Shown piece after piece: positions 27,000-60,100 of a stretch of 64,000 nucleotides of DNA; within the stretch, counting starts at the first letter, position 1, and every line of letters starts with the position of its first letter. The notes below the pieces were generated by a model. The model was not told the origin of the DNA and did no database searches. It worked only from the letters and a program-made list of their open reading frames with translations. A program made the translations under genes and the position numbers. Origin of the DNA: a virus (taxonomy: Duplodnaviria > Caudoviricetes); the IMG/VR virus record IMGVR_UViG_3300003702_000001, positions 2,160 to 66,159 of that record; one strand, 5' to 3'.

Positions 27000-27203
27000 A
27001 TGAAATTAAGAATTATGAATGAAACAGGTCACACTGACCTAATATTGAACCAAGAAGAAATGATTGAACAGATTAATGACCACCCTACGCATTGGGTGTT
27101 TATTGATGGGGAATGTGTTTTGAGAGAAAACATAACCTCAGTGGAATGGGACACTGTAGATAATGTGAATCTCGTCCCGGCAATTGTCGGAGGAACTGAG
27201 TAA
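27000..27203 (+). CDS. Ubiquitin-like (beta-grasp; SAMP/MoaD/ThiS-like) protein with GG plus a 2-residue extension
   Basis: 67 aa; MKLRI first strand; WVFIDG; terminal hydrophobic strand VNLVPAIVGG-TE. Confidence 0.75.
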   Translation: MKLRIMNETGHTDLILNQEEMIEQINDHPTHWVFIDGECVLRENITSVEWDTVDNVNLVPAIVGGTE

Positions 27204-27229
27204 GCACCTTAATTGGTGTTTTCTCATAT

Positions 27230-27260
27230 GTGGTGGTAATTTGCCCCCCAATTACCCCAC
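27230..27260 (+). terminator. Stem-loop after the Ubl gene (terminator or processing site)
   Basis: GTGGTGGTAATT / AATTACCCCAC arms, followed by a pyrimidine run. Confidence 0.35.
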
Positions 27261-27287
27261 TACCCTTTCTTCAGGAGAGAGAATATC

Positions 27288-27671
27288 GTGGATTTATGCG
27301 ATTATTCTAATATTATTCCGAAAGGAATGCTACCAATCGTGCTAGAAGCACATGGTTGGATATACAAAGATAGTATAAGTTATTTAGACTATACTTTGAT
27401 GAAACCCGACTTCTACCCTTCGGGGTTTGTTCTTGCTGTAAGTAAGAAAGCAATAATAGTTTGCGGTGGAGAATCCCTAATCAAATTTAAGGGTAATGAA
27501 TATTCAGATGTTAAGGAATTAATAGATGAATTTGGAAGGGCTATCATAGATACCTTTCCGCAATGGACATTTGAAATAGAAAAGGAATGGACCGTTATGA
27601 AAAACGGAGAGTATGTCCATTCTTTTTCTTCATTTGCGCAAATAGCAGAGAGAAAGAAACTAAGGTGTTAA
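27288..27671 (+). CDS. Hypothetical protein
   Basis: ORF track; GGAGAG SD-like sequence, GTG start. Confidence 0.7.
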   Translation: MDLCDYSNIIPKGMLPIVLEAHGWIYKDSISYLDYTLMKPDFYPSGFVLAVSKKAIIVCGGESLIKFKGNEYSDVKELIDEFGRAIIDTFPQWTFEIEKEWTVMKNGEYVHSFSSFAQIAERKKLRC

Positions 27672-27672
27672 G

Positions 27673-29559
27673 ATGAAGATGGATAACCCCACAAAAGTAT
27701 TATCAGATTATAATGTATTTACAAAGTACGCTAAATATATATCCTCAGAAAATAGAAGAGAAACTTGGATAGAATCATGCGAAAGAAATATGAATATGCA
27801 TCTCAAAAAATATGCAGATAATGAAAAATTGTGTAATGAGATTAAAAAGGTATATGCTAATTTTGTAATGACTAAGAAAGTATTGCCTTCTATGCGGTCA
27901 ATGCAATTTGCAGGAAGACCTATTGAATTATCCCCCAATAGAGTATATAACTGTGCTTATATGCCAGTAGATTCTGTAGAGTGTTTTTCAGAAGCAATGT
28001 TTCTTCTTTTAGGAGGAACGGGAGTAGGTTACTCAGTTCAACGCCATCATATTGATGAACTACCTGAAATAAAGAAACCTAATCCAATAAAATTCAGAAG
28101 AATATTAATCAGCGATTCTATTGAAGGTTGGGCTGATGCAGTTAAGGTATTATTTGAGTCCTACTTTGGACACAGAACTTCCTCTCCTAATTTTGATTAT
28201 GGGGATATTAGATTAAAGGGTTCCAGATTAAAGACTAGTGGCGGAAAAGCCCCCGGCCCTGCACCATTAAGAATTGCTTTAGTTAAAATAGAAACAATGC
28301 TTCTTGAAAAGAGAGAAGGAGACCAACTAACGCCAATAGAATGTCATGATATTATGTGCCATGTTGCTGACGCTGTATTATCTGGTGGCATTCGTAGGGC
28401 CGCTTTAATCTCATTATTTAGTGTTGATGACTTAGAAATGATTAATGCTAAATCTGGCGATTGGGATAAGTTACATCCTCATAGAGCAAGAGCGAATAAT
28501 TCTGCAGTCATTATAAGACACAGAATCAAAAGAGGATTCTTTGATGAATTATGGAAGAGGATTAAAGCAAACAGTATGGTAAGTGGTTCCGGTGAGCCGG
28601 GCATTTACTTTTCAAATGACAAAGATTGGGGAACTAATCCTTGTTGCGAAATAGCATTAAGGCCATACCAATTCTGCAATTTAACTGAATGCAATGTATC
28701 CAATGTTGAGAATCAACACGATTTAGAAGACAGAGTGAAAGCGGCCACATTTCTAGGAACTCTACAGGCTTCCTATACAGATTTCCACTATTTGCGAGAG
28801 GTATGGCGTAAGACTACAGAGAAAGATGCCCTTTTAGGTGTGTCCATGACGGGAATCGCTAGTAATAAGGTCACTTTGTTAGACATTGAACAGGCAGTCA
28901 TAGTAGCAAAGAATGAAAATGAACGGGTTGCAGAAATATTGGGCATTAATAATGCCGCAAGATTGACCTGTGTTAAACCATCGGGAACAGCAAGTTGTGT
29001 TTTAGGAACCTCATCAGGAATACACGCTTGGTTTGCACCCTATTATATTCGTAGAGTTAGAATGAATAAGATGGAAGATGTATATAATTACTTACTAGAA
29101 AATGTTCCTGAATTAATAGAAGACGATTATTTCGTGGCTTCTGATGCTGTCTTCTCTATACCACAGAAAGCACCAAATGGCGACATTATTACAAGAAAAG
29201 AATCGGCTATTCATTTACTAGAGAGAGTTAAGAGATTCGCTATACGATGGGTGGATAAAGGACACAAAGATGGAATGAATTCACATAATGTTTCGGCAAC
29301 TATAAATATAAAAGAGGGTGAATGGGACACAGTAGGTCAATGGATGTGGATGAATAGACACTATTATAATGGCCTCGCTGTTATGGCTCATGATGGAGGC
29401 AATTATCCCCAACTTCCCTTTGAAGAGATAACTAAATCTGAATACAATAAAATGTGCGGAAAGTTAAGTCTACTTGATTTTAGTCAAGTAGTGGAAACAG
29501 ATGACAATACTGATTTCAAAGATGACCCCGCCTGTGTTGGTGGCTACTGTGATATCTAA
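27673..29559 (+). CDS. nrdJ: Class II (B12-dependent) ribonucleotide reductase, no ATP cone
   Basis: YNCAY, TNPCCEI, CNLTE, TCVKPSGT, C-terminal CVGGYCDI; no NrdB in the window. Confidence 0.92.
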   Translation: MKMDNPTKVLSDYNVFTKYAKYISSENRRETWIESCERNMNMHLKKYADNEKLCNEIKKVYANFVMTKKVLPSMRSMQFAGRPIELSPNRVYNCAYMPVDSVECFSEAMFLLLGGTGVGYSVQRHHIDELPEIKKPNPIKFRRILISDSIEGWADAVKVLFESYFGHRTSSPNFDYGDIRLKGSRLKTSGGKAPGPAPLRIALVKIETMLLEKREGDQLTPIECHDIMCHVADAVLSGGIRRAALISLFSVDDLEMINAKSGDWDKLHPHRARANNSAVIIRHRIKRGFFDELWKRIKANSMVSGSGEPGIYFSNDKDWGTNPCCEIALRPYQFCNLTECNVSNVENQHDLEDRVKAATFLGTLQASYTDFHYLREVWRKTTEKDALLGVSMTGIASNKVTLLDIEQAVIVAKNENERVAEILGINNAARLTCVKPSGTASCVLGTSSGIHAWFAPYYIRRVRMNKMEDVYNYLLENVPELIEDDYFVASDAVFSIPQKAPNGDIITRKESAIHLLERVKRFAIRWVDKGHKDGMNSHNVSATINIKEGEWDTVGQWMWMNRHYYNGLAVMAHDGGNYPQLPFEEITKSEYNKMCGKLSLLDFSQVVETDDNTDFKDDPACVGGYCDI

Positions 29560-29839
29560 ATTAAATAACAAGGAATTATTCTACATTAGAAAAGAAGTAT
29601 TAGACTTATTCACTGGTGCTAGGGCAGAAGCGGGCTACAAAGATAATATCAATCGTAGGTATGAAAGATTGATAGATGGAGAAATAGCCACAAAGCAAAT
29701 CATAGCCTTTTTAAGAAGGTCACTAGCAGATGCTCATATTTGTTCTAGAAAGGAAGCAATTACCTTCCTAAAAGATATATACCATCAAAAGAAATATTAC
29801 GAGAGAAATTCAGAAGAAGAGAAAATATGGAAGAGGTAA
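29501..29839 (+). CDS. Hypothetical protein
   Basis: ORF track; true start probably near 29549. Confidence 0.6.
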   Translation: MTILISKMTPPVLVATVISKLNNKELFYIRKEVLDLFTGARAEAGYKDNINRRYERLIDGEIATKQIIAFLRRSLADAHICSRKEAITFLKDIYHQKKYYERNSEEEKIWKR

Positions 29840-31143
29840 TTAAAATGAAAGTAAAAATATTAATCCCCACGCCTGATGATTCTAGGCACAAATATTCAAC
29901 GAGTTTTTTGTTCAGAACTACAAACACAATGTATAGTTATAAAACCAGATTAAATAAGTTTGGAGAATATGTTATCGGTATAGAATCTGTAGATAGATAC
30001 AAAGATTCTTTAGACCCAACTTATTCTGTTATTGAAGATGCTTTAAAAGTTCATTTGTTTCCAACACATTTAAGATGGAATAATTCATCAGATAACATGA
30101 CAGGAATCCTAACTTTTAGATATAAAGATGGCGACTCAACTGTAGTATTTCAAAAGAGTAAACCCCACTTCTTTTTAAATGGGGCTAGACAGAATAAATC
30201 TATTGTATTAGGAAATATAGCAAGGATTATATTTCGTTCTTGCTTTGAGAGAAGCAGTAGAACTATGGACAAATATATAAGTAGACTATTACTGTTTCCT
30301 CCTAATGTTACTCATGCTATAGAAAATAGAACCTCCTATAATTTTTGGTTAGAAGGTAAAAAATATGAAGTTAGATTAACTACGAAACCTATTTCAGATG
30401 TTGAGTGTGCATTAGAAATATCTGATGGTATATGGGCTCCTATAAAAGTAAATGATTTAAATGGGTTTATTAATTTCCATAGATTTGATAAAAGAAGGTC
30501 ACAAAGATGGGGAATATCTCCTAAATATTTATGGGCTAATTTAATTGGTAGCCCACCAACAATGGCACAAGAGAAATTAATGATAGAATTTCTTAAACAA
30601 AATAGAACTCAAGACATTGTAGAAGATAGAGCAAACCAACTTCTTTCAGAATTAGAAGAAGAATATCCTAATAGAATTATAATGTTCGATTTCCCTGCGG
30701 TCAAAGCAAGGGACAAAGATAAGAATTCTACAGATGAATCTTTACAGGCCATGTTTGTTCGTGGTAAAATATGTGATTGGATTATTATTGATAACCAATA
30801 TAAAAGTAATATCCAAAGAGTTTCTACTTATTTGTATCTCACCATAGATAATGGTAATGGTAGAGCAGGTAGAGAAAGAATACCTTTTGATGATGGACAT
30901 TTAGTTGGCCCGATTTGCATAGATAATATTCATCGTAATTCTAGTAAAGGTGACCAATTTGCCGCAAGAGCAATGGCACTACTAAATGATAGTATGACTG
31001 TGGCAATGGTTCATACAATTAAATCGTATATTCCTCAAGATATTTTAGACAGAAAAATAGAGTGCAGAATAAATTCATTGTACCCGAAAGGAATGAAAAT
31101 AAAAAATGGTGATAATAATGATAGAAGTATGTTGGGAATGTAA
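29827..31143 (+). CDS. Hypothetical protein with candidate C-terminal E2/UBC-like domain
   Basis: GPICIDNI...ALLND resembles the UBC catalytic segment GxICLDIL...SLLxD; HPN motif absent. Confidence 0.5.
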   Translation: MEEVIKMKVKILIPTPDDSRHKYSTSFLFRTTNTMYSYKTRLNKFGEYVIGIESVDRYKDSLDPTYSVIEDALKVHLFPTHLRWNNSSDNMTGILTFRYKDGDSTVVFQKSKPHFFLNGARQNKSIVLGNIARIIFRSCFERSSRTMDKYISRLLLFPPNVTHAIENRTSYNFWLEGKKYEVRLTTKPISDVECALEISDGIWAPIKVNDLNGFINFHRFDKRRSQRWGISPKYLWANLIGSPPTMAQEKLMIEFLKQNRTQDIVEDRANQLLSELEEEYPNRIIMFDFPAVKARDKDKNSTDESLQAMFVRGKICDWIIIDNQYKSNIQRVSTYLYLTIDNGNGRAGRERIPFDDGHLVGPICIDNIHRNSSKGDQFAARAMALLNDSMTVAMVHTIKSYIPQDILDRKIECRINSLYPKGMKIKNGDNNDRSMLGM

Positions 31144-32017
31144 ATCAACAAGTATAACTTACGAAGAAAGATTAGGCGAAACAATCTGTGATACATGTGG
31201 TTTAGTTTTAGTTCAGAATGCCTTGGAAGAAACAATATCCCTTCCATTGGCTGAAAAGAAGACTGCTAACTATTTAGGAAGAACAAACTCTTCCTTTAAT
31301 TTAGGGTCAATGATATTTATATCAGACTTAAACTCTAAGAAATCAAGAACTTTGTACAATACTCAAAGATGGAATCAGATAGAATCTCCTAGTGATAAGA
31401 AAATGATAAAACTATGTAATATGGCTCTATCTAATTATAATGTTCAATATGAAATTAAAGCGCGAGTTCCTCGTTACTATAAGATACTTCAAGGAAAATA
31501 TGCTTTGAGGGGAGTATCACTTGATATTAGGGCGGCGGCTCTAACTTATTATATTGTTAAAGAAATAGGTATTGCTACTACCATAAAAAGACATGCTCAC
31601 TACACTAGGGTCACTGAAAAGGAAATTTCAAAGAACGCTAAAGTAATAGCAACAATTCTAGGCAAGCCTTGGATATTTGCTCAAGTTAATGTTGAGGGTT
31701 TAGTAGATAATGTAGGTCATAATTTATCTTGTACGGATTCAGAATACCTTGGTAATGTTAAAATACTAGCCCACCAAGTAAATGAGATATTAGATATACA
31801 TTGTGAAAGACTTACTGCCGCATATTTAGCGGCATGTTTTTATTTAGTTTCTATCTTTCAAAGAAAACGATATTCTCAGGTGCGACTTGCTCGCGCTAGT
31901 GGAACAACAGAAGTATCATTAAGAAGTAACATGAAGAAATTACTAATTAAATATGGCACTAAAAAGGAAAGATTATACTATCTAACCCTAGAAGAATTTA
32001 TGGATGGAGTAAGATGA
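31106..32017 (+). CDS. tfb: Transcription initiation factor IIB (TFB) homolog
   Basis: Zn ribbon CWEC...GETICDTCGLV; two cyclin-like repeats (AAALTY, AACFYL, TTEVSLR). Confidence 0.85.
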   Translation: MVIIMIEVCWECKSTSITYEERLGETICDTCGLVLVQNALEETISLPLAEKKTANYLGRTNSSFNLGSMIFISDLNSKKSRTLYNTQRWNQIESPSDKKMIKLCNMALSNYNVQYEIKARVPRYYKILQGKYALRGVSLDIRAAALTYYIVKEIGIATTIKRHAHYTRVTEKEISKNAKVIATILGKPWIFAQVNVEGLVDNVGHNLSCTDSEYLGNVKILAHQVNEILDIHCERLTAAYLAACFYLVSIFQRKRYSQVRLARASGTTEVSLRSNMKKLLIKYGTKKERLYYLTLEEFMDGVR

Positions 32018-32589
32018 GAAGAAAGATATTGATTATAGGAGCCGGAGGAATAGGTAGTCATTTAGTACAGTTTCTATCTAAGGTACAGGAATACCGTATC
32101 GTTATTGCTGACTCTGATTCATACGAGAAAGACCAAGAACGCTATCAAAACTGCTATCCTAGAGATTGGGGTATAAACAAAGCAAAAGTAATGGCTAGTC
32201 ATTATACTGAGGTTACCCCCATTGAATATGATATATTGACAGATAAGCAACTTAAGGGGTATGATTTAGTTATTTGTTGTGCCGATAATTTAGATGTAAG
32301 ACGCTTAGTTTATAGGCAGGGGCATGGTAGCCATAGTAAGGTGAAGTGGTTAGACCTTAGAGCGCAAGGACGAAACGGTATATTAATCTCACATTTAATT
32401 AACCCCTCATTAACAGATGCTTTCTTAGAAGGCCCCGAAGGTTCATTCTCTTGCCAAGCAGAAAGTTGGGATGGCAAATCTAAAAATATAGATATGTTAC
32501 ACATAGTTATGGCTAGTATTGGCGCACAATGGATTCAGAAGTGGTTTAATAAAGAAGAAGTGAATGAGTATGTGGTGATGAATGTATGA
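32014..32589 (+). CDS. E1-like ThiF/MoeB-family activating enzyme
   Basis: IIGAGGIGS, ADSD, NKAKV, DLVICCADNLDVR; candidate catalytic Cys in SFSCQ; no Zn-binding CxxC pairs. Confidence 0.9.
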   Translation: MRRKILIIGAGGIGSHLVQFLSKVQEYRIVIADSDSYEKDQERYQNCYPRDWGINKAKVMASHYTEVTPIEYDILTDKQLKGYDLVICCADNLDVRRLVYRQGHGSHSKVKWLDLRAQGRNGILISHLINPSLTDAFLEGPEGSFSCQAESWDGKSKNIDMLHIVMASIGAQWIQKWFNKEEVNEYVVMNV

Positions 32590-32828
32590 GTGAAGAGGAA
32601 GATGAAGATATAGAATTCACAGATGATGATGTTGGTGAGATATTTAATACTATTACTAAGGATGGAGTTTATACCCGCGCAGAAATAGTTAAGTTAACTT
32701 GTCCTGCTTGCGGAGAATCATTTATAGGAACTAAAAGACACGCGGGTGGTTTTATTGCAGGACATAAAGCATATCATGAATTTGTTAATGAAGAAGATGT
32801 TTTGGTTCAATCAATGGGGGGAGCCTAA
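32586..32828 (+). CDS. Small acidic C2H2-type zinc-finger protein ending GGA
   Basis: CPACG...HKAYH; C-terminus QSMGGA. Confidence 0.7.
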   Translation: MSEEEDEDIEFTDDDVGEIFNTITKDGVYTRAEIVKLTCPACGESFIGTKRHAGGFIAGHKAYHEFVNEEDVLVQSMGGA

Positions 32829-32829
32829 G

Positions 32830-33174
32830 ATGGTAGATTGGACAATTCCTGATAAATTAAAAATAAAAGATGAAGATGTTGAATTATCCCCACCTAGTGA
32901 AGCAATAGGAAAACTGGGGGGTGACCCAATAGAAAATATTCCAGTATCTATTCCTAGTGAAATAACTAATTGGACAAATGAATACCCTACTGAATTTGGT
33001 ATAACTTCTTTTAGACGAGATAAGATATTAGGAGTAACCGATACTAGCAAGAGTATATTAGTTCATATGATTAATGGACATACATATACTATAACAATAA
33101 GGGAGAGCATAATTCCATTCTTTAACAGGGATGGATTAACTACATCAGATGTGTTAACCGATTTGAAAAGGTGA
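32830..33174 (+). CDS. Hypothetical protein
   Basis: Start reset to MVDWTIP, just after the ZnF stop. Confidence 0.6.
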   Translation: MVDWTIPDKLKIKDEDVELSPPSEAIGKLGGDPIENIPVSIPSEITNWTNEYPTEFGITSFRRDKILGVTDTSKSILVHMINGHTYTITIRESIIPFFNRDGLTTSDVLTDLKR

Positions 33175-33261
33175 TAAAATGAAATTAGCAAAATTAATAA
33201 GTGGTAGTAAACTAATAAATTGGTTGATGAAATATAATGATATGCTATTAGTAGTAGCAGT

Positions 33262-33480
33262 ATGTATAATTATTGCAAGTGTATGGGTGGTTTCGTCATG
33301 ATTCCTGAAACAGTAATTTTGAGAGAAGAAACAGAAGCAGAAAAACAACATAAAAGAATTCTTGCTACTATGAAAAGAACAAATAATCTAAGAGAATGGC
33401 ATAAACAAAACAATAAATATATTTTAATAGTAACATTTTCTTTAATATTCACTATAGTATTATTATGGGTGAGTGCATGA
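33262..33480 (+). CDS. Small protein with C-terminal TM helix
   Basis: YILIVTFSLIFTIVLLWV. Confidence 0.55.
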   Translation: MYNYCKCMGGFVMIPETVILREETEAEKQHKRILATMKRTNNLREWHKQNNKYILIVTFSLIFTIVLLWVSA

Positions 33481-33986
33481 GTGAAGACACAGTAACACAA
33501 GTGGTTAAAATGGATAAAGAAGAATTTGATATGACGAATGAAGATTGGAAAGAATCTATTTCTCAGTTATGGGAAATATGTAAAGAAGATATGCTTTGGG
33601 TTTATCCCAATGCTGAGACTGAGGCTTTTCTCAGTCAAATATGGAAACAATCGCTTGAAGCATTTGATAAACCTAGAGAAGTTCAGATTGTTATAGATGC
33701 AAAGAATGATATTTATATGAGTGTGGGGTCGGCAAGTTTTGTGTCGTTCCTAAATCAAGATAAAAACTTAGGAGGAATGAAACTTCCTATTAAAAGTTGG
33801 ATTCATACTCATCCATTTGGTATGGCTTACTTCAGTGGAACAGATTGGTCAACCATTAATACATGGAAAGGAGAATTAGAGTCAGCAATTGTATTGGGTG
33901 ATGCTCAATACCTTGCTTATGATTGTGAGAGTCAAATCGCCAAGCGAATTGAATATGGAATATATAATAGAGGTGAAGAAGAATGA
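33465..33986 (+). CDS. JAB/MPN+ metallo-isopeptidase
   Basis: REVQ...WIHTHPFGMAYFSGTD (E...HxH-x7-SxxD). Confidence 0.9.
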   Translation: MGECMSEDTVTQVVKMDKEEFDMTNEDWKESISQLWEICKEDMLWVYPNAETEAFLSQIWKQSLEAFDKPREVQIVIDAKNDIYMSVGSASFVSFLNQDKNLGGMKLPIKSWIHTHPFGMAYFSGTDWSTINTWKGELESAIVLGDAQYLAYDCESQIAKRIEYGIYNRGEEE

Positions 33987-34092: not shown

Positions 34093-34614
34093 ATGATGAA
34101 GAAAGTTATGGTGCTGTTAATCACAGCAAGTTTGATGGCAGGTTGTGCTGATGTAATACCCGACCCCGAAGGATGGTTGGGTGATGATGAAGTTGATGAA
34201 CCAGATTGGATAACAGAAGTAGGTGAAATTACAGTTATGTATAATGCAACATCAATAGTTAATGTAACAGTTGAGGTTGTTGGTGAGAATAATACAACAA
34301 CTAATCAAACTACTACAATGGAAGTAGTGGTTCCCGACCCGGTTGTATGGATTGATACTAATGCAACATATGGTTGGCTAGAGGTGAACGCAATTAATTA
34401 TACTGCAACGCATCTTAGTTTTGAAATTGTTAATAATACAGTAATTTTTAATAACTATAGTTTTGATGTTGCCGCTTACTTAGTGCAAGATAGTTATAAA
34501 TGGAGTAGTGGATTTGCCCCCGAATTAGGTAATGCTACTTTGTATGTGCCGTCTTTCCCCTTTGATATTACAATTAACTACACAGTGACTTACAGGGTTT
34601 GGAATGGTAGATGA
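34093..34614 (+). CDS. Lipoprotein with dense N-glycosylation sequons
   Basis: Signal peptide with lipobox LMAG-C; 11 N-x-S/T sites. Confidence 0.8.
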   Translation: MMKKVMVLLITASLMAGCADVIPDPEGWLGDDEVDEPDWITEVGEITVMYNATSIVNVTVEVVGENNTTTNQTTTMEVVVPDPVVWIDTNATYGWLEVNAINYTATHLSFEIVNNTVIFNNYSFDVAAYLVQDSYKWSSGFAPELGNATLYVPSFPFDITINYTVTYRVWNGR

Positions 34615-35009
34615 AACCTACTATTACCATAAGGTTTCCTGCCCCACTACCGGCAGAAATACCTTGTCCTATTTGTGATGGTAATAAATGTAAAGTCTGT
34701 GATAAAACAGGCAGAATGCGATTAACAGTAGATGCTAAGGTTCCCATTCAACGGGCTTTAATTATAAAGTATGTTGCTGAAAACTTAGAAACGATAGCAC
34801 CATTATTGACTAAACAATATGGCTTATCTCCTGATGTAGAAACAGAAGAAGTTGTAGATGTTGGCGAAGGTCAATATGAAATTGTTAGAATTAGTAGTTT
34901 AGGTGGAGCAATTTGGATAGCCAATAGGTTAGATGAATTAGAATCTCCTAGATATTTCAAATCGTTAAAAGAACTCACGCGTTTTAGAGGTGGTTGGATT
35001 GAAGAATGA
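34611..35009 (+). CDS. Zn-finger protein (DnaJ-like CxxC...CxxCxxxG)
   Basis: CPICDGNKCKVCDKTG. Confidence 0.7.
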   Translation: MKPTITIRFPAPLPAEIPCPICDGNKCKVCDKTGRMRLTVDAKVPIQRALIIKYVAENLETIAPLLTKQYGLSPDVETEEVVDVGEGQYEIVRISSLGGAIWIANRLDELESPRYFKSLKELTRFRGGWIEE

Positions 35010-35751: not shown

Positions 35752-37280
35752 CTCTAGCAAAATTCGCTACGATGTGCGAACTACTTGAATTTGAAACACC
35801 TACTAGAAAGGCTCAGATAATCTCTGAGAATTTAAGTTCTTTTGAAGACAAAGCACAAATTATAGAAATCTTATCCTTAGAATTATTACCAAATAATATT
35901 GGAGGATTAAGAGCAATAAAATGGGCGGCTAGTGCATTAGGTTTATTTGAAGATGAAGTAGAAACATCTGTATCTATGTGGGGTGATTTAGGTGAAGGCA
36001 TGTTTCAATATTATGATGGAGATAATGTTCACTCAGATATGAATATGAATTTGTTTAGGGCTATGTTACAAAAGGACTGTTCTTCAATACATGCCCCACA
36101 ATATAGAGTTTTTGCAGAAAGACTATGTAAAATGTCTGCTGTAGAAAAGAAATGGTTTTTACGCTATTGGCTACGCAAGCCTAGAAATGGAGTAAATAAT
36201 AAGATACCTCTTAAGGCAATGGCTGTGCATTTCAAAGTAGAATACAAAGATATAGTGAAGTGGCATCAGTATAATACAGCATCAGATATTTGTAGTGAAT
36301 TAGAAGAGGGAAACATACCTGAATCTAAATTAGTTCATGGACAGTTTGTTAATCCAATGCTGGCTAAGGCTCGCAAAGGAAAGGAAAGGCCAACGAATTA
36401 CATTGTTGATATTAAGTATGATGGTAATAGGTATCAGATTCACAAAGAAGGAGAGTCAGTAATCATATTCAATAGAAAGGGTAAGATTGTATCAGACCAA
36501 TATCCTGATGTTGTAGATATAGTAAGTGATTTTAAAGTGTCTAGTGTTATTCTTGATACAGAAATCTATCCTGTAAATCCTGATGGTTCTCCTGCACCCC
36601 ACAAATTATTGGGGAAAAGAGTTCATAAGAAAGATAAGGGAGAAGCAGTTAGAGAATGCCCGGTTAAAATGGTAGCCTTTGATTGTCTATCAATGAAGGG
36701 TGTTCCATTGATAGAAAACCCTTTATCATATAGAATAGCATATTTGACTGCAATTCCTGAAGAATATCAGGCTGAAACTTTTGATGACCATACAATTCAA
36801 TCAGCATACAATATTGCTATTAGTAGAGGATTTGAAGGAATAATGATTAAGGATGCTAATGCTCTCTATCATGCTGGAAAAAGGTCTAAGGCTTGGTTAA
36901 AGTATAAGCCCCCAAGAATTTCTTTAGATGTTGTTATCACTTCTGCCAAATATGGTGAAGGAAAGAGACATGATGTTTTTGGTACTTATGGTATTTCCGT
37001 AATAGATGGAAGTGATTATGTATCAGTTGGTTCTGTTGGGACCGGATTTTCTGATTCTGATTTAACTCTATTGACTACTGACTTAAGAAAGATTGTAGAA
37101 TCTTATGAGAAAGACACATTTCATTTCTTACCTAGAGTAGTTCTAGAAGTTACTGCTGATTTAGTATCTACAGATGACGACGGTAATATAGGACTTAGAT
37201 TTCCTAGGGCTGTAAGAGTAAGAGAAGATAAGTATGCTAAAGAAGCCGATACCCTACAAACTGTTAGAGAGATGATGTAA
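35748..37280 (+). CDS. lig: ATP-dependent DNA ligase
   Basis: KYDG (motif I), DTEI, AFDCL, EGIMIK, WLKYK, LRFPR; start reset to MTLAKF. Confidence 0.95.
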   Translation: MTLAKFATMCELLEFETPTRKAQIISENLSSFEDKAQIIEILSLELLPNNIGGLRAIKWAASALGLFEDEVETSVSMWGDLGEGMFQYYDGDNVHSDMNMNLFRAMLQKDCSSIHAPQYRVFAERLCKMSAVEKKWFLRYWLRKPRNGVNNKIPLKAMAVHFKVEYKDIVKWHQYNTASDICSELEEGNIPESKLVHGQFVNPMLAKARKGKERPTNYIVDIKYDGNRYQIHKEGESVIIFNRKGKIVSDQYPDVVDIVSDFKVSSVILDTEIYPVNPDGSPAPHKLLGKRVHKKDKGEAVRECPVKMVAFDCLSMKGVPLIENPLSYRIAYLTAIPEEYQAETFDDHTIQSAYNIAISRGFEGIMIKDANALYHAGKRSKAWLKYKPPRISLDVVITSAKYGEGKRHDVFGTYGISVIDGSDYVSVGSVGTGFSDSDLTLLTTDLRKIVESYEKDTFHFLPRVVLEVTADLVSTDDDGNIGLRFPRAVRVREDKYAKEADTLQTVREMM

Positions 37281-37753
37281 TGATAGAAGTAGGCAGTATG
37301 ACCATCATAGATGATTGGCCCTATAGATGTGTTAAAATCGAGGATGGTACTGCTCACTTAAAGCGACTCGGAGATGAAACTAGGGGGCGCATGAGGAAAT
37401 TTACTGTTGATATGTGCCCCTACATTGACGAAAATAAAGACTTAATCACACCAAGAAAGCCTAGGCCCAAGAGAAAGACAGCAAAATCTGTAAACATCAT
37501 GAAAATCATTAGAGATGAAGTTGATATGAGTGTATCGAATGATATGGTGTATTTTGTAAGAGAATGGCTGAATACTATTATCCGTAATTTAGCATCTAAT
37601 GCTCAGGAGAATGCTATAAGAGAGAGTCACAAAAGAATCTCCGCTAAACACTGGTATTGGCTGGACATTCCTGTTGGTGTGGGTAATGGTTGTTGGGAAC
37701 AACAAGATAAATTTGCTAAGGAATGGAAACTAGAAGACTATGAGGAAAATTAA
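37280..37753 (+). CDS. Histone-fold protein 2 with N-terminal beta domain and basic linker
   Basis: IMKIIRDEVDMSVSND...IIRNLASNAQENAIRESHKRISAKH; linker PRKPRPKRKTAK. Confidence 0.7.
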   Translation: MIEVGSMTIIDDWPYRCVKIEDGTAHLKRLGDETRGRMRKFTVDMCPYIDENKDLITPRKPRPKRKTAKSVNIMKIIRDEVDMSVSNDMVYFVREWLNTIIRNLASNAQENAIRESHKRISAKHWYWLDIPVGVGNGCWEQQDKFAKEWKLEDYEEN

Positions 37754-43570: not shown

Positions 43571-45322
43571 ATGATAATCTCACAGGCTAGTAATGGAATC
43601 TCTTTATCATGGAGAGATTATGACCCCGATACAGGGGAACAAAATGCTAGATGGTCTAAATTTATTAAATATGAAGATTTCCCACCTTTCTTTTTTGTTG
43701 GAGAATCTGAACATATGCCTGAGAATTTTATAACAACTAACCGTTGGGGTAAATCTACTATAATAGAAGTTAAATATGAGGAAGGAGATTATGTTAATCT
43801 ACAAAGAGAGAAATTAATAAAAGTTCTTTGTAAATATCCATCTCAAATACCCCTAGTAAGAAAGGAATTTATACAAACATATGAAGCAGATGTTCTCTAT
43901 ACTCATAGATATGCTATTGAAGAAATAGATGAAATGCCAGAGTATAATTTAAAGAAATGGTATTGGGATATTGAATGGCAACAGGGTGGAAAACATGATG
44001 GTGCTATAACTTGTATCGTTGTGTTTGATAATTATCTTGGTGAATTTTATAGATGGTCATGGCTACCAGAAGACTTAACTAATGTAGATACTGATTCATA
44101 TGAATATGATAAGTATGGAAAGTTACATGCCAAAACTAAGACAAGTGACCATAAAACTTCTACAGGAGATATATTTAAAATAAGAGATTTTACTTATCCC
44201 AAAGAAATACAGATGTTATCTGCATTTATATCTGAATGTTTAATCCAAGACCCCGACATGTTAATTTCTTGGTTTGGTAATAAATTCGACTTACCAAAAG
44301 TATTGGAAAGATGTGTTGTAAATAAATTAGATGCAAGATTACTTTCTCCTATTTTTGAAGTGGATGGATTCATTCAAAAGAATAATGAATATATATTTAG
44401 AAAATCTTCATTTAATTCTATTGAACAACCTATCAAGGGAAGAATATGTCTTAGTTTAGATTTAGCCTTTGAAAGACAATGGAATGATGCTCAGAAAGGA
44501 ACCTTACCTTCTTTGGCTTTAGATTATGTATCTGATTTGGTTCTTGGTGAAAAGAAATTAGTTAGTAAAAAATTTCCTGATAAACAAGATTTCTTTAGAA
44601 GAGCATGGGAAGAGGATAATGAAACATATTTAGAGTATGCTTTAACAGATGTAGATTTGATTCGTAGATTAGATGAAGAAAATTATTTATCTGAAGCGAT
44701 TATATCATTACAACGATTACTTAAAGCACCATTTGAAGCATGTTTTTATGCTAGTCATATGGGTAGTATCTATTTTATGAGACATGCTTGGTGGAAAGCC
44801 CCCACTAGAGATGAGGGACCAAAGACTAGTTATCAAGGAGCAATGATATTTGACCCATTGATAGAAAAAACTAATGGATTACATATAGGTGTGGCGGCTT
44901 TTGATTTTGCAGGTCTTTATCCATCAGTTTGTGTAGCAAGGAATATTAGTTGGGAAACTAAAAGCGATGAACCAACTAAGTTTGCAGTTAATATAGCAAT
45001 ACCAAGAGATTTCTCAGAAATTACTAAGAAAGAAATGCTATATTATAAAACTGATAAACTAGGAGTCTTACCTAAAGCAGTAATTGAACTTAATAGTTTG
45101 AGAACAGATTATAAAAATAAGATGAAAAAAGCAAAGAGCCAAAGAGAATATAATAAATGGTTCAACAATCAAATGGCTGTTAAAAGATTGAGGGCATCTT
45201 TTTATGGTATTATTGGTTATCAAGGATTTGGTTGGGCAGATAGAGATTTAGCCGCATCAATAACAGCAAGTGCTAGAGAAGCAATCAGAGAAGCCACCCT
45301 CACAGCGAGGAAGATAGTATGA
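43571..45322 (+). CDS. polB: Family B DNA polymerase, N-terminal part (exonuclease, motifs A and B)
   Basis: WDIE, NKFDL, YALTD; DFAGLYPS; KRLRASFYG; stops before motif C. Confidence 0.92.
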   Translation: MIISQASNGISLSWRDYDPDTGEQNARWSKFIKYEDFPPFFFVGESEHMPENFITTNRWGKSTIIEVKYEEGDYVNLQREKLIKVLCKYPSQIPLVRKEFIQTYEADVLYTHRYAIEEIDEMPEYNLKKWYWDIEWQQGGKHDGAITCIVVFDNYLGEFYRWSWLPEDLTNVDTDSYEYDKYGKLHAKTKTSDHKTSTGDIFKIRDFTYPKEIQMLSAFISECLIQDPDMLISWFGNKFDLPKVLERCVVNKLDARLLSPIFEVDGFIQKNNEYIFRKSSFNSIEQPIKGRICLSLDLAFERQWNDAQKGTLPSLALDYVSDLVLGEKKLVSKKFPDKQDFFRRAWEEDNETYLEYALTDVDLIRRLDEENYLSEAIISLQRLLKAPFEACFYASHMGSIYFMRHAWWKAPTRDEGPKTSYQGAMIFDPLIEKTNGLHIGVAAFDFAGLYPSVCVARNISWETKSDEPTKFAVNIAIPRDFSEITKKEMLYYKTDKLGVLPKAVIELNSLRTDYKNKMKKAKSQREYNKWFNNQMAVKRLRASFYGIIGYQGFGWADRDLAASITASAREAIREATLTARKIV

Positions 45323-45928: not shown

Positions 45929-46026
45929 TGATAAATTATTGTAGTTGCCAATTTAATAGAGGTACTAGAAGTATAACTAAAAAAGGATGTTGTGCTTATT
46001 GTGGATTAGAGGTGGATGAAAGATGA
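45925..46026 (+). CDS. 33-aa Cys-rich peptide
   Basis: Translated by hand: MMINYCSCQ...GCCAYCG...; its stop overlaps the polB C-half ATG. Confidence 0.45.
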   Translation: MMINYCSCQFNRGTRSITKKGCCAYCGLEVDER

Positions 46027-46907
46027 AAGTAGTTTATGGTCATACTGATTCTATTTATGTTAAAATAGATTCTATAAAGAAGGCAAAGTCTATAGTAAAA
46101 ATAATTAATAATCATGTTAGAAGTAAATTCCCTAATGTTATGGGTTTAGAAGAGCATCCTATTAATCTAGAGTTTGAGAAATACTTTGAGAGTTTGGGGG
46201 TAGGAGCAACTAAGAATAGAAATGCAGGTTTAATTACTTGGAAGGATGGTAATTTTCTTATAGATAATGAATTTTTTATGACAGGTTTTACTGCTAAAAG
46301 AATATCAGAAACTTCTCTTGCGAAAGAAGTACAAATTAAAGTATTGAATATGTGGGTTGAACAAAAAACTAATGAAGATATACTGGAATATCTCACAGAT
46401 ATTTATCAAACTACTCTTAATGGTAATATACCATTAAAAAAGATTCTAAAAAGAAGTAGATATAAAGAAGAAAGATTTCATGTATATTGCCAATCATGTA
46501 AGAAAGCATATTATTTAACTGATACCAAATGTAATCATACCTTAACTACTTCGGAAAAGAGAGGTAGGGGTTGGGTATCAGCCGGGAAAAGACCATCAAT
46601 AGGTTCAGGAATAGTAGGTGTTTTAATGTATAATAAACTAAATAAGGAACCAATTAATGATACTTATTTATTTATGAAAATAAAAAATAGTATTCATACT
46701 ATAACCCATCCTATAAATAATATGTTGTTCAATCCTACTTACATGGCTGGTCTAGTAGAAGAAGATTTCAAAGATTTTACTCCTGATTGGGAACACTATG
46801 CACAATCAATAGTTAAAAAAGCAACTCCCATATTCAATGCTATGGAATGGGACATATATGATATTACAAAAGATGCAAGTCAAACATCTTTAGATGAGTG
46901 GTGGTAA
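46023..46907 (+). CDS. polB: Family B DNA polymerase, C-terminal part (motif C, thumb)
   Basis: MKVVYGHTDSIYV, LEFEK, KNRNAG, TGF..KR. Confidence 0.9.
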   Translation: MKVVYGHTDSIYVKIDSIKKAKSIVKIINNHVRSKFPNVMGLEEHPINLEFEKYFESLGVGATKNRNAGLITWKDGNFLIDNEFFMTGFTAKRISETSLAKEVQIKVLNMWVEQKTNEDILEYLTDIYQTTLNGNIPLKKILKRSRYKEERFHVYCQSCKKAYYLTDTKCNHTLTTSEKRGRGWVSAGKRPSIGSGIVGVLMYNKLNKEPINDTYLFMKIKNSIHTITHPINNMLFNPTYMAGLVEEDFKDFTPDWEHYAQSIVKKATPIFNAMEWDIYDITKDASQTSLDEWW

Positions 46908-54118: not shown

Positions 54119-57100
54119 TCATGTGAATGTGCTCCATATTGCTGACTTAGTTCCGCTTCCTGAGTTTGATAAAGCAACCGTTGTTGCAGGTGAAGTTAAG
54201 CCGTTTATCCACACTTTGAAACCATTAGACACACCGACATTACCCCCTGAACCTGAAATGTTAGGTAGTGAGTCTGAAGACCATGCTAAAATATTATAGG
54301 GCGTAGAAGTTTCTTGATTATTAGCCCAATTTGAAGTCATAATAGCATAATATTTTGAACTATCTATTGTTAATGATTGTCCCTGTGCTACTATCCAATC
54401 TACTGAGCCGTAACCTGTTGAACCGCTAAGGTCAACAAACTTTGAAGCAGCCCAACTAGCCGTAGCGATTAATGTGCCATTAGGAGAACTATCTATTAAA
54501 TTTGAATCTGTTAATTCATATAGTGCGGTAGTTACTCCTGTATCAGCAAGACCTGACGATAAAGAATTAATGTAAATCCATGCTTTAGATAGAGTTTTTG
54601 ATTCTAAGAAAGAAACCAAATTACCATAAGCCCAATAAGCATTCATCCCTCCGTTTGTAATGCTACCAGCATTACCATTCATCATCGGAACTCTAGTACT
54701 AGCCGTAAACTTGAAAGCAGCACTATCTGTATTACCACCTACTGCTGTTCCTCCAACAGTTAAAGAACCCGGAATATCAACAACACCGCTTGAATTACCT
54801 GTAATCCAAACAGGAGTTCCATCTCCTGATGATATGGATAATTGGTCATCACCTGTTGCACTTGCTACATCAGCATTTCCAATAACTACATTGTTATCCC
54901 CAGAAGTGATGTTATTCCCGGCTTGATACCCAATGGATATGTTGTTAGCACCACCATTCATGTGCGATTGAGCCTGATACCCTACGGCAGTATTGTAATT
55001 TCCATCGGCCCAATTCTGACTGTGACTTTGATAACCTAATACCACATTTCCTGTGCCACTACGAATCTTGTAGCCAGCATCTTTGCCCATTAGGATATTC
55101 TGCCCTCCTGTTGTCCAATTGTAGAATGCACCCTTTCCGACAACTACATTGTCGTGACCACCTGCTTCTCCTGATTGGCCCCTACCTGCATTTGCACCAA
55201 TAAGTGTGTTACCTGATGTTCCTGTAATGTAAAGATGAGAATTATATCCTATGGCCGTATTGTATTCACCTGCCAAATTAGCACTACTCGCCTCATGTCC
55301 GACAGCAACATTGTAATCCCCAGTTGTCGTAACATCGAGTGCATAGTTTCCAATAGCGATGTTCTTCTCACCACCATTAACAGCACCACCGAGAGCGTCG
55401 TAACCGATTGCGATGTTATCTGATTCTGTGTCTGCGGCAACTAAAGCACCCTTTCCAATAGCGGTGTTTCTTGTGCCTGTCGTGATTGCATATCCTGCAC
55501 TCTCACCAATTCCTATGTTGTAGTCACCTGTCGAGAGAGTTCTCAGAGAATATTTCCCTATTCCTATATTGCTTGAAGCATCGTCGCTAAGACCATACAT
55601 GCTTTGATGCCCAATAGAGATATTATCATCCCCATCGTTAGCGGTAGCATTAGCCGTAGAGCCAAGCGCGATATTGTAATTACCACCATCCAAGTATCGT
55701 CCAGCACTATGTCCGATTATAACATTGGATGCTCCATTGGTATTAGTCAATCCTAATGTATCTCTCCCAATAGCGATATTATTGCCACCAGTCGTCAGAG
55801 TCTTGAGAGAGTTTTTGCCTATACCAACATTGTTATCACCGGAAGTCAATGCCGCGAATACATCTTTACCGATACCAACATTTCCTGATGCCGCATCAAG
55901 AGTCCCATGTGGGGGAGCAGCACCATCAGGAGATATGAGAATACTGTCTGTGAAGTTCGTGATGTTGCTGATTACATCAGTTAAGCCATCAAGTGAAGAA
56001 GCACCACCAACAGCAGAACCTCCAACAGTAAAGGAACCTACAACATTGACTGTTCCATCAGCCGCAATAGTCATTCTTGAAGTTCCGGCTGTTGAGAAAC
56101 CAAGTTGGTCTGCATCAATTCGATACATTCCTGTATTAGTATCGCCATTGAAAGTGTAGTAAGGGGAGGCTGCGGTTCCACTCAGAGCCATAAATTTACC
56201 TGATGAGCCACCGATATAAAAATTGGTAGTAGTAAATCCAACATCACCATGCACTTGCATTTTGTTGCCATATGATGCGTTTGAACCTATGGTAGTATTA
56301 CCTGATTGGTCTATTGAAAAGAAAGTTGAATCAGATGCTTGGTCATGAACTTCAAAGGCATTACCTGTTCCTAATTGAACAATCTTCATTAGTGCAGTAT
56401 CGCTAGTATCTGATATTAAGAACTGTTCTGAACCACTTGTTGAAGTCCAAGTATAACCCGTAGTGCTACCACTAACAGCCGCCCATGCTGTTGAACCATC
56501 TGTTTGAGCAGTTAATACATAATCATTGGTTCCTGTTTTTGCTACTGGTAAATCATATGAGTCATTAATTCTAATTGCTGATGTTCCACTTCCACCACCT
56601 GAAATGTTTAGTTTATCACTTCCATCCCCATATAATTTACCACTATTGATTTTAATTCCTGCTGTTGTAAATGAAGTTTTTACACTCCCACCATGAACAA
56701 ACGAGAAACTATTACCACCATTATGGGTAATACCTGTGTCTGTATCTCCTGTGAAACTCAAAGCAGGAGTAGTTGAATAAGCATCTGCTAATCGAAGTGT
56801 TGGGTCTGTTAAGGTTTTATTTGTTAGTGTCTGTGTTCCTGTTAATGTAGCAACAGTTGAATCAATGGCTATATCATTTGCATTCGCAGTTATACCTGTT
56901 CCACCAATTACATTCAATGTTGGATTAACTGTGCTAGTTCCTGATTGAGTCATTCCTGTTCCAGCAGTAACAGAAGTTACAGTTCCACTAGAACCACTTG
57001 AAACAGTTTGCCAAGAACCATCTCCACGCAAGAACTTAGTTCTATCTCCTGTTACTGCCTTTGGTATTAATCCCGGATTTGCTGCATTACTTGAGTCTGC

Positions 57101-60100
57101 TCCCTCAAAGGTATTCAACTGAATGTCTTTAGTTCCACCAAGAGTTATCTTAGAAGAAGTTCTTCCCTTTATAGTTGCATTATCAGCAATAGTAGCCGCA
57201 GTAGTTCCACCATGTCCTCTAACACAACCTGTAAAGGTAGTGCTAGTAACACCTACATATCTAACCAACTCACCAGAAGCCAATTCTAATGTTCCAACAG
57301 TATCGAATCCAGTAGTTGAATCAACAGTAACAGTAGTAATTGATGAGTTATGTGACCCATTTGCTGATGTTGCTCCCTTTTGTGTTCCCTGTGATACAGC
57401 AAAGGCACTCACCTTATCTCCTGTAATTGCACTATCTGGTATCTTTGCGGTAGTTACTGAATCATCACAAATTGTTCTAGTGATAACTGCATCATCAGCA
57501 ATCTTTGGTTCACTAATTGCTTCCGATGCGATTTCATTTGAATCTACAGCGTTGTTAGCAATTTGTAAGTTTTCTATTGCGTTATCTGCTAATTGTGCAG
57601 TATCTATTGCTTTGGATACTAATTTACTTCCAGCAATATTACCTGTCAATTGTGCATTTGTGACTGTACCTGTTAAACTAGTAGTAGGTAGTCCCGTTGC
57701 ATTAGTTAGAACACCACTAACAGGTGTTCCTAATGCTGGTGCTACCAAAACCATACCTGAAGCCATTGTTCCTTGAGCCACTTGAGCCGCAGGTAATGCT
57801 GTTGCATTTGTTAAAACTAATGCTGATGGCGTTCCTAATGCTGGCGTTACTAATGTTGCATTGGTTAATGTTCCAACAGATGTAATTGCTGTTTGTGCTG
57901 CACCTGTAACTGTTGCGGCTGTTCCTGTTGTATTCTGATTCAATGTTGCTATTCTTTCCTTTGCGATTGTTCCACTTGAGAAGAAACTTGTTGCTGAATC
58001 GCCCGCTTGAGCCGTAGTAGCCGTAGTTGCAGTATCAGCATTACCTGTTAAAGCACCAACAAAAGCACTAGCAGATATTGGTTTGTTTGAAGCAAGTCTA
58101 GCATTAGTATTATCCCAAGTAAATGTAGGCGCACTAGCATGAGAACCAAATTGTAATCCAGCCGCATTAGTTAATGCTAGGGTTGAAGCACCACTAGCCA
58201 CAGTAATTGTTTTATCTACTATATCTAAATCAGTAGCACTTACAGTATTCAAATCACCTGTAATATTGAAATCTCCACCAACAGTTAAATCTCCTAGAAT
58301 GGTTATAGTATCATCTGCAACTCCAATAGTTACATCATCGAAATCTGCCGCAAGACCACTTTTTAGGTTAGCAGTTGAAACATTAACATCTGTATTGTGA
58401 TTTATGTCGCTTACCTTATCATCGTTTACATTTACTCTAAACTCTAACTTACCAAATGCTTCCCTAATCTTATCTGCGGCAACAACATTACTTTCTGAAC
58501 CAGCAGTTGAATATCCTGTTAATGCTAGGTTTGCTATCTCAGTAGCAGTTTGGTCATCAGTAGCATCTGATGGTGCATGAGATACTTGTGAATGGTCATA
58601 ACCAATTTTACCTCTATCGCCTCTATATGCTGTGCTACTTGTTTCACCTAATGCTAGTGTAGTAAAGGCTGTAGAATTAAAAGCATTTGAACCAAATATC
58701 TCAGATGAGAGTTTTCTCTTTTGAGAGCCATTATCAAGAACAACAAACTCATCTGATGCAGTTACCCAAGCCTGAGTCATATCTGCTAAGTCTGATAAAT
58801 CCACATCAAGAGCATTACTATTCAAATCAAGTAAAGTTCCAGCACTTCTTTGAGTGTTAGTATCTGTTGATGTAATTGTAACTGCACCTGCAGATTCAGT
58901 AATAGTTACATTAGAACCTGCTGTGAATGCTAATACCTCAGAAGCACTTAATGTATTACCACCAGCAGTTATACCCCTCCAAGTATTTGTATCTGTTTCA
59001 GCCGCCCATGTGATTGCTCCACTACCGTTGGTCTTCAAGATGTAATTCGCTGAACCATCGCTTGTAGGGAAGGTGTAAGCATTGTTGAACATTACCGCAT
59101 TATTTGAATTTCTTCCCACTAATACCTTTGAACCGGCTGTGGCTCCACCATACAGATAGAGATTTGCGGCACTCCCATCTCCATCTTGAATCTGAATAAA
59201 GGCTGCATCATCTTCATCTCCGGTTTCGAGAATCAAATCTGCTGAGCCGCCGGATGTAAGTTTTGCATTAGCAGTCCCATTCGATATGGCTAAAGTCGTG
59301 GCTGAAACATCATAAGTGAACTTTGCATTACTTTCAATCTCGTTACTCGTTAAATCTCCATAGGCGACCTGATTATCTGAAATTGAACCACCGATGGTAC
59401 CACTTGATATTGTTTGCCAAGTATTATCACCTCTAAGGAATTTAGCATTTCCTATACCTGATGCTGATAACATCGCTAAATCCACAGCACCGGAAGCAAT
59501 TGTTAACGCAGTTGCACCTGTTACATCACCTGTATGTGTGGCATTTGTTACCTTAGCAGTATTAGCAGTAACAGCAGAAGCGTCGGTATAACTAGTCTTA
59601 GCAGTATTAGCAGTAACAGCATCAAATACTGTTGGAGTCATTACTCCACTTACAGATGTAGTGGCTGCTGGAATTACTGCATTAGTCCCATCAGAAGATA
59701 CTATCGTTCTCGCTGCTGTTGAACCTGTAATAGTTAGATTAGTACTTACATTGTGGTTTATATCTGATACCTTTGCATTGTTAGCAATAACATTATCATA
59801 CAATGCTTTACTCATTACTCCTGAAACACTAGCCGTTGCTACAGGTATTGTTACATTATTTCCTGTAGATGAAGTTATTACTCTAGCAGCAGTAGTCCCT
59901 GTAATACCTAGATTAGTTGCTACATTCGCTTCTGCACCCGAAGGAGCATGAGCCGCTTGGGAATGAGTGTAAGCAGTATCATAGTTAGTTTTCAATGCAT
60001 TAGTAAAGTTATTTTGTGTAAGACCACCATCTCCAACTGCAATTGCAGAAGAGTATGCTACATCTGCTGTTCTTGCTAATGTTCCACCAGCAGTAGGTAA

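Follow-up and report, generated by a model that had tools for sequence, protein, structure and literature searches.

Tailed archaeal viruses of the magrovirus type probably encode a protein-conjugation cascade of their own, built around a ubiquitin-like (Ubl) protein. The evidence comes from a stretch of 64,000 nucleotides of the IMG/VR record IMGVR_UViG_3300003702_000001 (positions 2,160 to 66,159; hereafter the window), which belongs to a virus of this type, and from its relatives among marine metagenome and IMG/VR contigs of 85–103 kb. Within about 7 kb of the window, four genes lie on the plus strand. They encode a Ubl of 67 amino acids (aa; 27000–27203), an E2-like protein of 438 aa (29827–31143), a ThiF-fold adenylation domain of 191 aa, here called mini-E1 (32014–32589), and a JAB/JAMM metallopeptidase of 173 aa (33465–33986). 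A sequence-only reading of the window had singled out these four co-oriented genes as a Ubl conjugation set, and the four open reading frames (ORFs) are indeed all present on that strand. Catalytic or terminal residues are invariant over 71–268 unique sequences, depending on the gene, and the cascade would be part of the conserved replication-module core of these viruses.

The four proteins and their conserved residues

No protein of the set is as well conserved as the Ubl. Across 67 genomes that were compared for all four proteins, the median identity with the window copy reaches 64% for the Ubl, compared with 51% for the E1, 48% for the JAB peptidase, and 40% for the E2-like protein. Its family comprises 197 cluster representatives with 61–90% identity. 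The alignment is conserved as far as an invariant A-[IVM]-V-G-G motif, which is followed by 0–3 freely differing residues; the window copy ends in PAIVGG-TE and thus has a two-residue tail. R42 is the last Arg or Lys ahead of GG in this copy, so that a tryptic remnant on a conjugate would be 23 residues long and would escape standard diGly enrichment. The two glycines are invariant in 36 aligned sequences as well as in all 70 Ubl copies (59 unique) found in the loci described below. Among these 70 copies, the tail occurs in 27 variants, and four copies stop exactly at GG.

Sequence searches said little about the fold of this protein. The Pfam model ThiS matched 2 of the 36 members (best E-value 0.028), the threshold of a curated model for ThiS or ubiquitin was not reached, a PDB profile search found no Ubl, and the Atlas search was uninformative; a few JGI records do name the homologues ThiS. 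Because the Pfam, PDB-profile, and Atlas searches were uninformative, a structure model was needed. In the AlphaFold model (predicted local distance difference test score, pLDDT, 82), the elements follow the beta-grasp order and the GG tail is disordered, and the best 50 rows of a Foldseek comparison with the PDB are ubiquitin, NEDD8, or SUMO (E-value ~3e-3, probability 0.89–1.0). The predicted arrangement, b-b-a-b-b-b, is that of a beta-grasp protein, as the sequence-only reading had proposed. The beta-grasp fold alone does not separate a modifier from a sulfur carrier.

The proposal of a ThiF/E1 enzyme was likewise borne out. Mini-E1 matches Pfam ThiF (PF00899) with an E-value of 3.4e-13, above the gathering score (49.8 bits vs. 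a cutoff of 28.1). In profile comparisons with the PDB, its family retrieves MccB (3e-10) and Uba1 (1.6e-9), together with UBA3, Uba4, UBA5, Cap2, MoeB, and ThiF, all in the range of 3e-10 to 1e-6. The residues G9, G11, G12, and G14 of the GxGGxG loop, D33, D35, K56, D91-N92, R96, and Cys147 (in the motif G-S-F-S-C-Q) are invariant in 71/71 unique sequences. The DN-R motif aligns with that of Uba1, and both the nucleotide loop and the Mg-binding Asp are in place. These sequence features point to a true E1-superfamily adenylation domain in a minimal form, and the 120 relatives listed are similarly short (183–212 aa). The PDB alignments did not reach the region of Cys147, which lies 56 residues beyond D91, about as far as the Cys of the crossover loop does in ThiF and MoeB. 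We infer that Cys147 may be the equivalent of that residue.

In the JAB peptidase, the sequence-only reading had noted an intact E/HxH/SxxD signature, and this signature proved to be shared by the whole family. Its residues E72, H114, H116, S124, and D127 form an exact E...HxHx7SxxD pattern, and none of them varies in 73/73 unique sequences; a search for HxHx7SxxD by regular expression found it in 84/84 JAB ORFs. In the motif region only, the family profile matches AMSH-LP (4e-5), AMSH/Sst2 (2.5e-4), and, more weakly, the PDB entry 6fjv (0.011), an Rpn11-like protein that presumably comes from Caldiarchaeum subterraneum. The top row of this PDB search, a WD40 protein, was discarded as a repeat artefact with no single significant stretch. 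Pfam Prok-JAB remains under its threshold on this protein (E-value 0.059, 13.7 vs. 25).

The E2-like protein belongs to a family without annotation, which gave 349 matches in one search and 195 representatives in a profile search of 1.84 billion proteins. This profile search provided no bridge to cellular E2 families. The single protein matched nothing in Pfam, NCBIfam, or PADLOC, a comparison of 43 family members with Pfam recovered no E2 family (UQ_con, Prok-E2_A-E) at E-values up to 10, and a PDB profile search gave no match. Similarly, a single-sequence scan of IMG/VR found nothing, and it was an alignment-based scan that found the family. The structure model (pLDDT 85) has no whole-chain Foldseek match in the PDB, and its BFVD matches are three unnamed homologues only. 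Residues 259–416, however, match about 35 UBC, UEV, and RWD entries, which is a modest structural match. The predicted order of elements in this part is a helix (263–279), four strands, a hairpin ending at Cys364, and helices from 374 onward. On account of the uniform match list and the order of elements, the protein is predicted to consist of an N-terminal region of ~255 aa followed by a C-terminal UBC-like domain (~259–416, nucleotides ~30601–31074).

Cys364 (codon 30916–30918, plus strand) is the candidate catalytic residue. It follows the strand 357–363, stands 10 residues ahead of the helix 374–386, and is embedded in the motif G-P-I-C-I-D-N, similar to one half of the UBC signature (G-x-[LIV]-C-[LIV]). 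Of the 268 unique E2-like sequences, which go down to 22% identity with the window copy, 267 retain this Cys, and no other Cys column is kept in >60% of them; D366, D376, Q377, and R381 are likewise near-invariant. The protein has no HPN motif, position 358 is variable, and the downstream His369 is kept in only 127/268 sequences. Concerning the UBC-like Cys segment seen by the sequence-only reading, the near-invariant Cys and the predicted domain stand, but neither an HPN motif nor a match to a curated E2 model could be added to them. Taken together, the predicted domain and the conserved Cys make us lean, with moderate confidence, toward a catalytic E2-like enzyme.

Linkage of the genes and the proposed cascade

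Relatives of the window were all located through the E2-like gene: 7 loci by exact-protein look-up and 80 IMG/VR loci by family scan, which, with the window, represent 77 unique E2-like sequences. Family hidden Markov models detected the Ubl in 67/67 loci with at least 4.5 kb upstream, the E1 and the JAB peptidase in 81/81 loci with at least 5.5 kb downstream, and all four genes in 64/64 loci with both flanks. Co-occurrence in relatives had been named beforehand as a check on the proposal, and it was found without exception in the loci with sufficient flanks. The gene order is always Ubl...E2-like-TFB-E1...JAB, on one strand. The four-gene observation is far beyond chance. Marine viral contigs hold a large family for each of the genes, the key residues are invariant, and the co-occurrence in these loci is complete.

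Two larger genes are interleaved with the set. The first is a viral homologue of transcription factor B (TFB/TFIIB; 31106–32017, plus strand; Pfam TFIIB Zn-ribbon 3.9e-7, NCBIfam TFIIB 1.6e-14). In 83/84 loci its gene separates the E2-like gene from the E1, a position as conserved as the Ubl genes. The second is a class II (B12-type) ribonucleotide reductase (RNR; 27673–29559, plus strand), which in the window lies between the Ubl and the E2-like gene. The RNR is absent in two loci (L086 and L067), and in a third an RNR of another class, with 700 aa and Ribonuc_red_lgN and TSCPD domains, stands in its place (L007:7476–9578); the Ubl array persists in all three. The RNR was therefore rejected as a component of the Ubl system.

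A reading in which the four genes are neighbors only through the synteny of the replication module, each acting separately, is very improbable in our judgment. It would fit the interleaving with TFB, RNR, and small ORFs, and also the fact that all sampled relatives are related viruses that have kept flanking genes as well, for example the ligase. However, the four components (GG-tailed beta-grasp protein, E1 adenylation domain, JAMM peptidase, and UBC-like fold with a Cys) are precisely those known to work as partners, and the array stays together despite the loss or swap of the RNR. In addition, the E2-like family is all but confined to this set, with its 195 representatives in 1.8 billion proteins and three matches in 185,579 species genomes. 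The latter three (L088, L089, and L090) lie on contigs no longer than 24 kb in metagenome-assembled genomes of unrelated marine bacteria (Maricaulis, Altibacter, and Balneolaceae), and are most likely magrovirus DNA that was mis-binned.

From the parts, their folds, and their conserved residues, we infer every chemical step of the following cascade. The JAB peptidase would take off the 0–3 residues after GG, and mini-E1 would adenylate the exposed Gly and hold the Ubl as a thioester on Cys147. The Ubl would then be handed to Cys364 of the E2-like domain and joined to lysines of host or viral proteins; the N-terminal region of ~255 aa in the E2-like protein could be a built-in part that recruits substrates, and the JAB peptidase could undo the attachment.

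Several points weigh against this cascade. The assignment of the E2, which rests on a modest structural match of a predicted model, is its weak point. The E1 matches positions 21–132 only of the 238 in the Pfam ThiF profile, and the Arg position of the NLxRQ motif, aligned to NLTRQ/NLNRQ of MccB and Uba1, is a Tyr in 66/71 sequences. Moreover, the protein starts 8 residues ahead of the G-loop, which leaves no room for the N-terminal helix region, so that the Arg-finger helix of E1 enzymes is lacking. At the level of gene organization, the set is not a tight operon, as TFB, RNR, and small ORFs lie in between; because all loci are from related syntenic viruses, the co-occurrence is confounded by common descent, and the linkage shows retention rather than independent gain and loss. 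Finally, a post-GG tail together with a JAB peptidase is not proof of conjugation, since this combination occurs also in the sulfur-carrier pathways QbsE/QbsD and CysO/Mec+.

This last point bears most directly on an E2-independent Ubl system, in which the 438-aa protein would be unrelated to the set and share a UBC-like arrangement only. The Ubl would then serve either in conjugation by the E1 alone, as in SAMP/UbaA or Thermus TtuB/TtuC, or as a thiocarboxylate sulfur carrier with a trimmed tail, as in QbsE/QbsD. We consider such a system unlikely, although it is the main rival of the cascade. Across 40 ORFs of the window, a Pfam scan detected no rhodanese, PP-loop, MoaE, ThiG, desulfurase, or other domain for sulfur transfer; the scan left out many small ORFs and the giant ORF at 54119–63832. 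Within the 40 ORFs, the remark of the sequence-only reading that sulfur-relay genes are absent holds. The E1 also lacks a C-terminal rhodanese domain. Every locus with the Ubl, E1, and JAB genes also has the gene of the 438-aa protein (64/64), its product has a single near-invariant Cys in G-x-[IV]-C-I-D-N inside a predicted UBC-like domain, and the JAB profile is closest to the deubiquitinases AMSH and Rpn11.

One proposal concerns the purpose of the system: counter-defense or interference with the host, rather than general modification. Here the viral JAB peptidase would strip Ubl or SAMP marks of the host from viral or host proteins. The Ubl, the E1, and the E2-like protein would overload or imitate a Ubl pathway of the host, or divert this pathway or the proteasome. 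In bacteria, sets of Ubl, E1, E2, and JAB have a role in virus–host conflict (Bil and Bub papers), Borg elements of archaea carry many candidate JAMM deSAMPylases (PMC12660748), and the viral set lies in a replication module that is assumed to be expressed early. However, the extreme conservation of the virus's own Ubl, of the E1 Cys, and of the E2-like Cys favors a working cascade of its own, and interference of this kind seems improbable to us. It nonetheless overlaps with the cascade described above and is compatible with the same chemistry.

Accessory proteins and genomic setting

Between the E1 and JAB genes, the window encodes an acidic 80-aa protein, Zn80 (32586–32828, plus strand), with a zinc-binding pattern CxxC...HxxxH and a C-terminus of GG plus one residue. 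Homologues are present in 37/88 loci (28 unique sequences), nearly always between E1 and JAB (e.g., L005:12734–12976 and L020:13608–13847). All 28 unique sequences end in GG plus exactly one residue (A, I, Q, V, or L), and the four residues before GG vary. Because this end repeats the hallmark of the Ubl on a protein that is not a beta-grasp, the E1 and the JAB peptidase, or the enzymes of the cascade in general, may have Zn80 as a second substrate. The CBASS (cyclic oligonucleotide-based antiphage signaling system) enzyme Cap2 conjugates the C-terminus of a non-Ubl protein. A more specific proposal joins these elements: a mini-E1 of ~190 aa, an unrecognized E2-like family fused to a substrate-recruiting region, and a GG-tailed, zinc-binding second modifier would together let the virus reprogram proteins of the host or of its own. 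The transcription machinery is a possible target, as the TFB is embedded in the set. We put this proposal forward tentatively, as somewhat short of an even chance.

Directly after the Ubl gene lies p127 (127 aa; 27288–27671, plus strand), a frequent but not obligatory partner, which is next to the Ubl in 45 of the 67 loci with upstream coverage. W24, F42, Y43, G61, W93, and W101 are invariant in this protein, which has no Pfam, PDB-profile, or Atlas match and no recognizable fold. It was dropped as a candidate E2, as its Cys59 is kept in 32/43 sequences only. A second small protein, p132 (132 aa; 34611–35009, plus strand), carries a single CxxCxGxxCxxC zinc knuckle and has homologues in 7/7 look-up loci, L001–L007 (phmmer E-value 1e-47 or better). 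It was considered as a RING-like E3 and rejected, its four Cys being too few for a RING. In one relative, a thermosome-type chaperonin (Cpn60_TCP1) is encoded directly downstream of the JAB region (L007:14066–15568); the window has none there.

The four-gene set lies in a plus-strand replication module, in the strand block opposite to that of the terminase, which is encoded on a minus-strand block, and of the structural genes. The module also encodes an ATP-dependent DNA ligase, an RFC-like AAA+ protein, ERCC4 and PD-(D/E)XK nucleases, a DnaQ-like exonuclease, and a histone-fold protein. The last of these (157 aa; 37280–37753, plus strand) adjoins the ligase and matches Pfam CBFD_NFYB_HMF at 2.3e-4, barely over the gathering score. 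The DNA polymerase, of family B, is encoded in two parts (43571–45322 and 46023–46907, plus strand) that are separated by ~700 nt, and a split polymerase of this family is a trait of group B magroviruses (Philosof et al., PMC5434244). At the other end of the window, a giant ORF of >3,237 aa on the minus strand (54119–64000; 54119–63832 as ORF) runs past the window end; the GC content of this region is 0.37–0.42, compared with ~0.33 elsewhere. A search of a phage collection with the window matched RNR fragments only and found no other counterpart.

Relation to known systems and significance

Sets of Ubl, E1, E2, and JAB are known in a few archaea and in bacteria, where recent work links them to antiphage defense. 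Of the known kinds, the nearest is the class 6d bacterial operon, with four genes for a Ubl, an E2-like protein, a JAB peptidase, and an E1-like protein (Iyer, Burroughs & Aravind 2006, PMC1779556), followed by the operon of Caldiarchaeum (PMC5654768). The viral set shares with class 6d its four separate components, its small standalone Ubl, and an E2-like protein that has a conserved Cys without the classical HPN histidine. However, it comes from an archaeal virus and not from a bacterial defense island, and it is spread over 7 kb with an embedded TFB. The E2 proteins differ as well: the downstream His is absolutely conserved in class 6d (PMC1779556), whereas the viral His369 varies as described, and the viral protein has a 255-aa N-terminal extension with no profile link to any E2 family. 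The viral E1, at 183–212 aa, also sets the two apart. The class 6d operons are the later "Bil" antiphage systems.

The operon of Caldiarchaeum subterraneum, which encodes an E1, an E2, a RING E3, a Ub, and an Rpn11-like protein (PMC5654768, PMC3082918), resembles the viral set in its archaeal-lineage setting and in combining a Ub-like precursor with E1-like, E2-like, and JAMM proteins. It is a cellular operon, whereas the present set is viral. In contrast to it, the viral set has no recognizable RING E3, its components have diverged much further from their eukaryotic counterparts, its E1 is minimal, and its E2-like protein is undetectable by sequence.

More distant likenesses concern parts of the set. 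The archaeal SAMP/UbaA/JAMM system and the sulfur carriers QbsE/QbsD and CysO/Mec+ also combine a beta-grasp protein with a C-terminal GG, a ThiF-type E1, and a JAMM peptidase able to expose or release the GG end, but they lack an E2, and the tail of the viral Ubl varies in both length and sequence. Membership of the SAMP/UbaA group was rejected, as the NCBIfam UbaA model (NF047750) scored 27.8 bits vs. a cutoff of 450. In the CBASS systems with Cap2 (an E1-E2 fusion) and Cap3 (a JAB), the likeness of Cap2 to the viral E1 is limited to the nucleotide-binding part; the viral E1 and E2-like proteins are separate, there is a dedicated Ubl, and no CD-NTase or effector accompanies them. Among tailed viruses of prokaryotes, the phages lambda and T1 encode a Ubl with a C-terminal Gly (TAPI) next to a partner JAB peptidase (TAPK), both for tail assembly (PMC1779556). 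This pair has no E1 or E2 and belongs to a tail module, whereas the present set is in a replication module. Membership of the PRTRC-type cassettes, which the sequence-only reading had named among known conjugation systems, was rejected as well, as the PRTRC ThiF model TIGR03736 scored 32.1 bits vs. a cutoff of 144.75 and no ParB-family domain was present in the 40 scanned ORFs. Overall, the earlier interpretation is partly supported.

The magrovirus genome papers examined make no mention of ThiF, ubiquitin, or JAB, and no report of the set was found in the literature on magroviruses, Marine Group II, or Poseidoniales and ubiquitin (subscription-only literature was outside this search). If true, the set would, to our knowledge, be the first complete machinery for Ubl conjugation described from a prokaryotic virus. 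The novelty lies in its being virus-encoded, in the minimal E1, in an E2-like family unrecognizable by sequence, in the embedded TFB, and in a possible second GG-tailed substrate. The only phage precedent in the literature examined is the tail-assembly pair of a Ubl and a JAB peptidase (PMC1779556). Of the set, the RaFAH paper (PMC8276007) notes MoeB/ThiF only, as one of the most prevalent "auxiliary" genes of archaeal viruses, with a general link to ubiquitination. If the cascade is real, this "auxiliary metabolic" annotation in archaeal viromes (PMC8276007) would mark a multi-gene system.

The cascade would also place Ubl conjugation on the virus side of the conflict between prokaryotes and their viruses, and it would make available an E1 of very small size and a novel E2-like family, both of use in studies of the evolution of such cascades. 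It would open the question of which proteins are tagged in the Poseidoniales (Marine Group II) hosts. More generally, an abundant group of ocean viruses may tag proteins itself.

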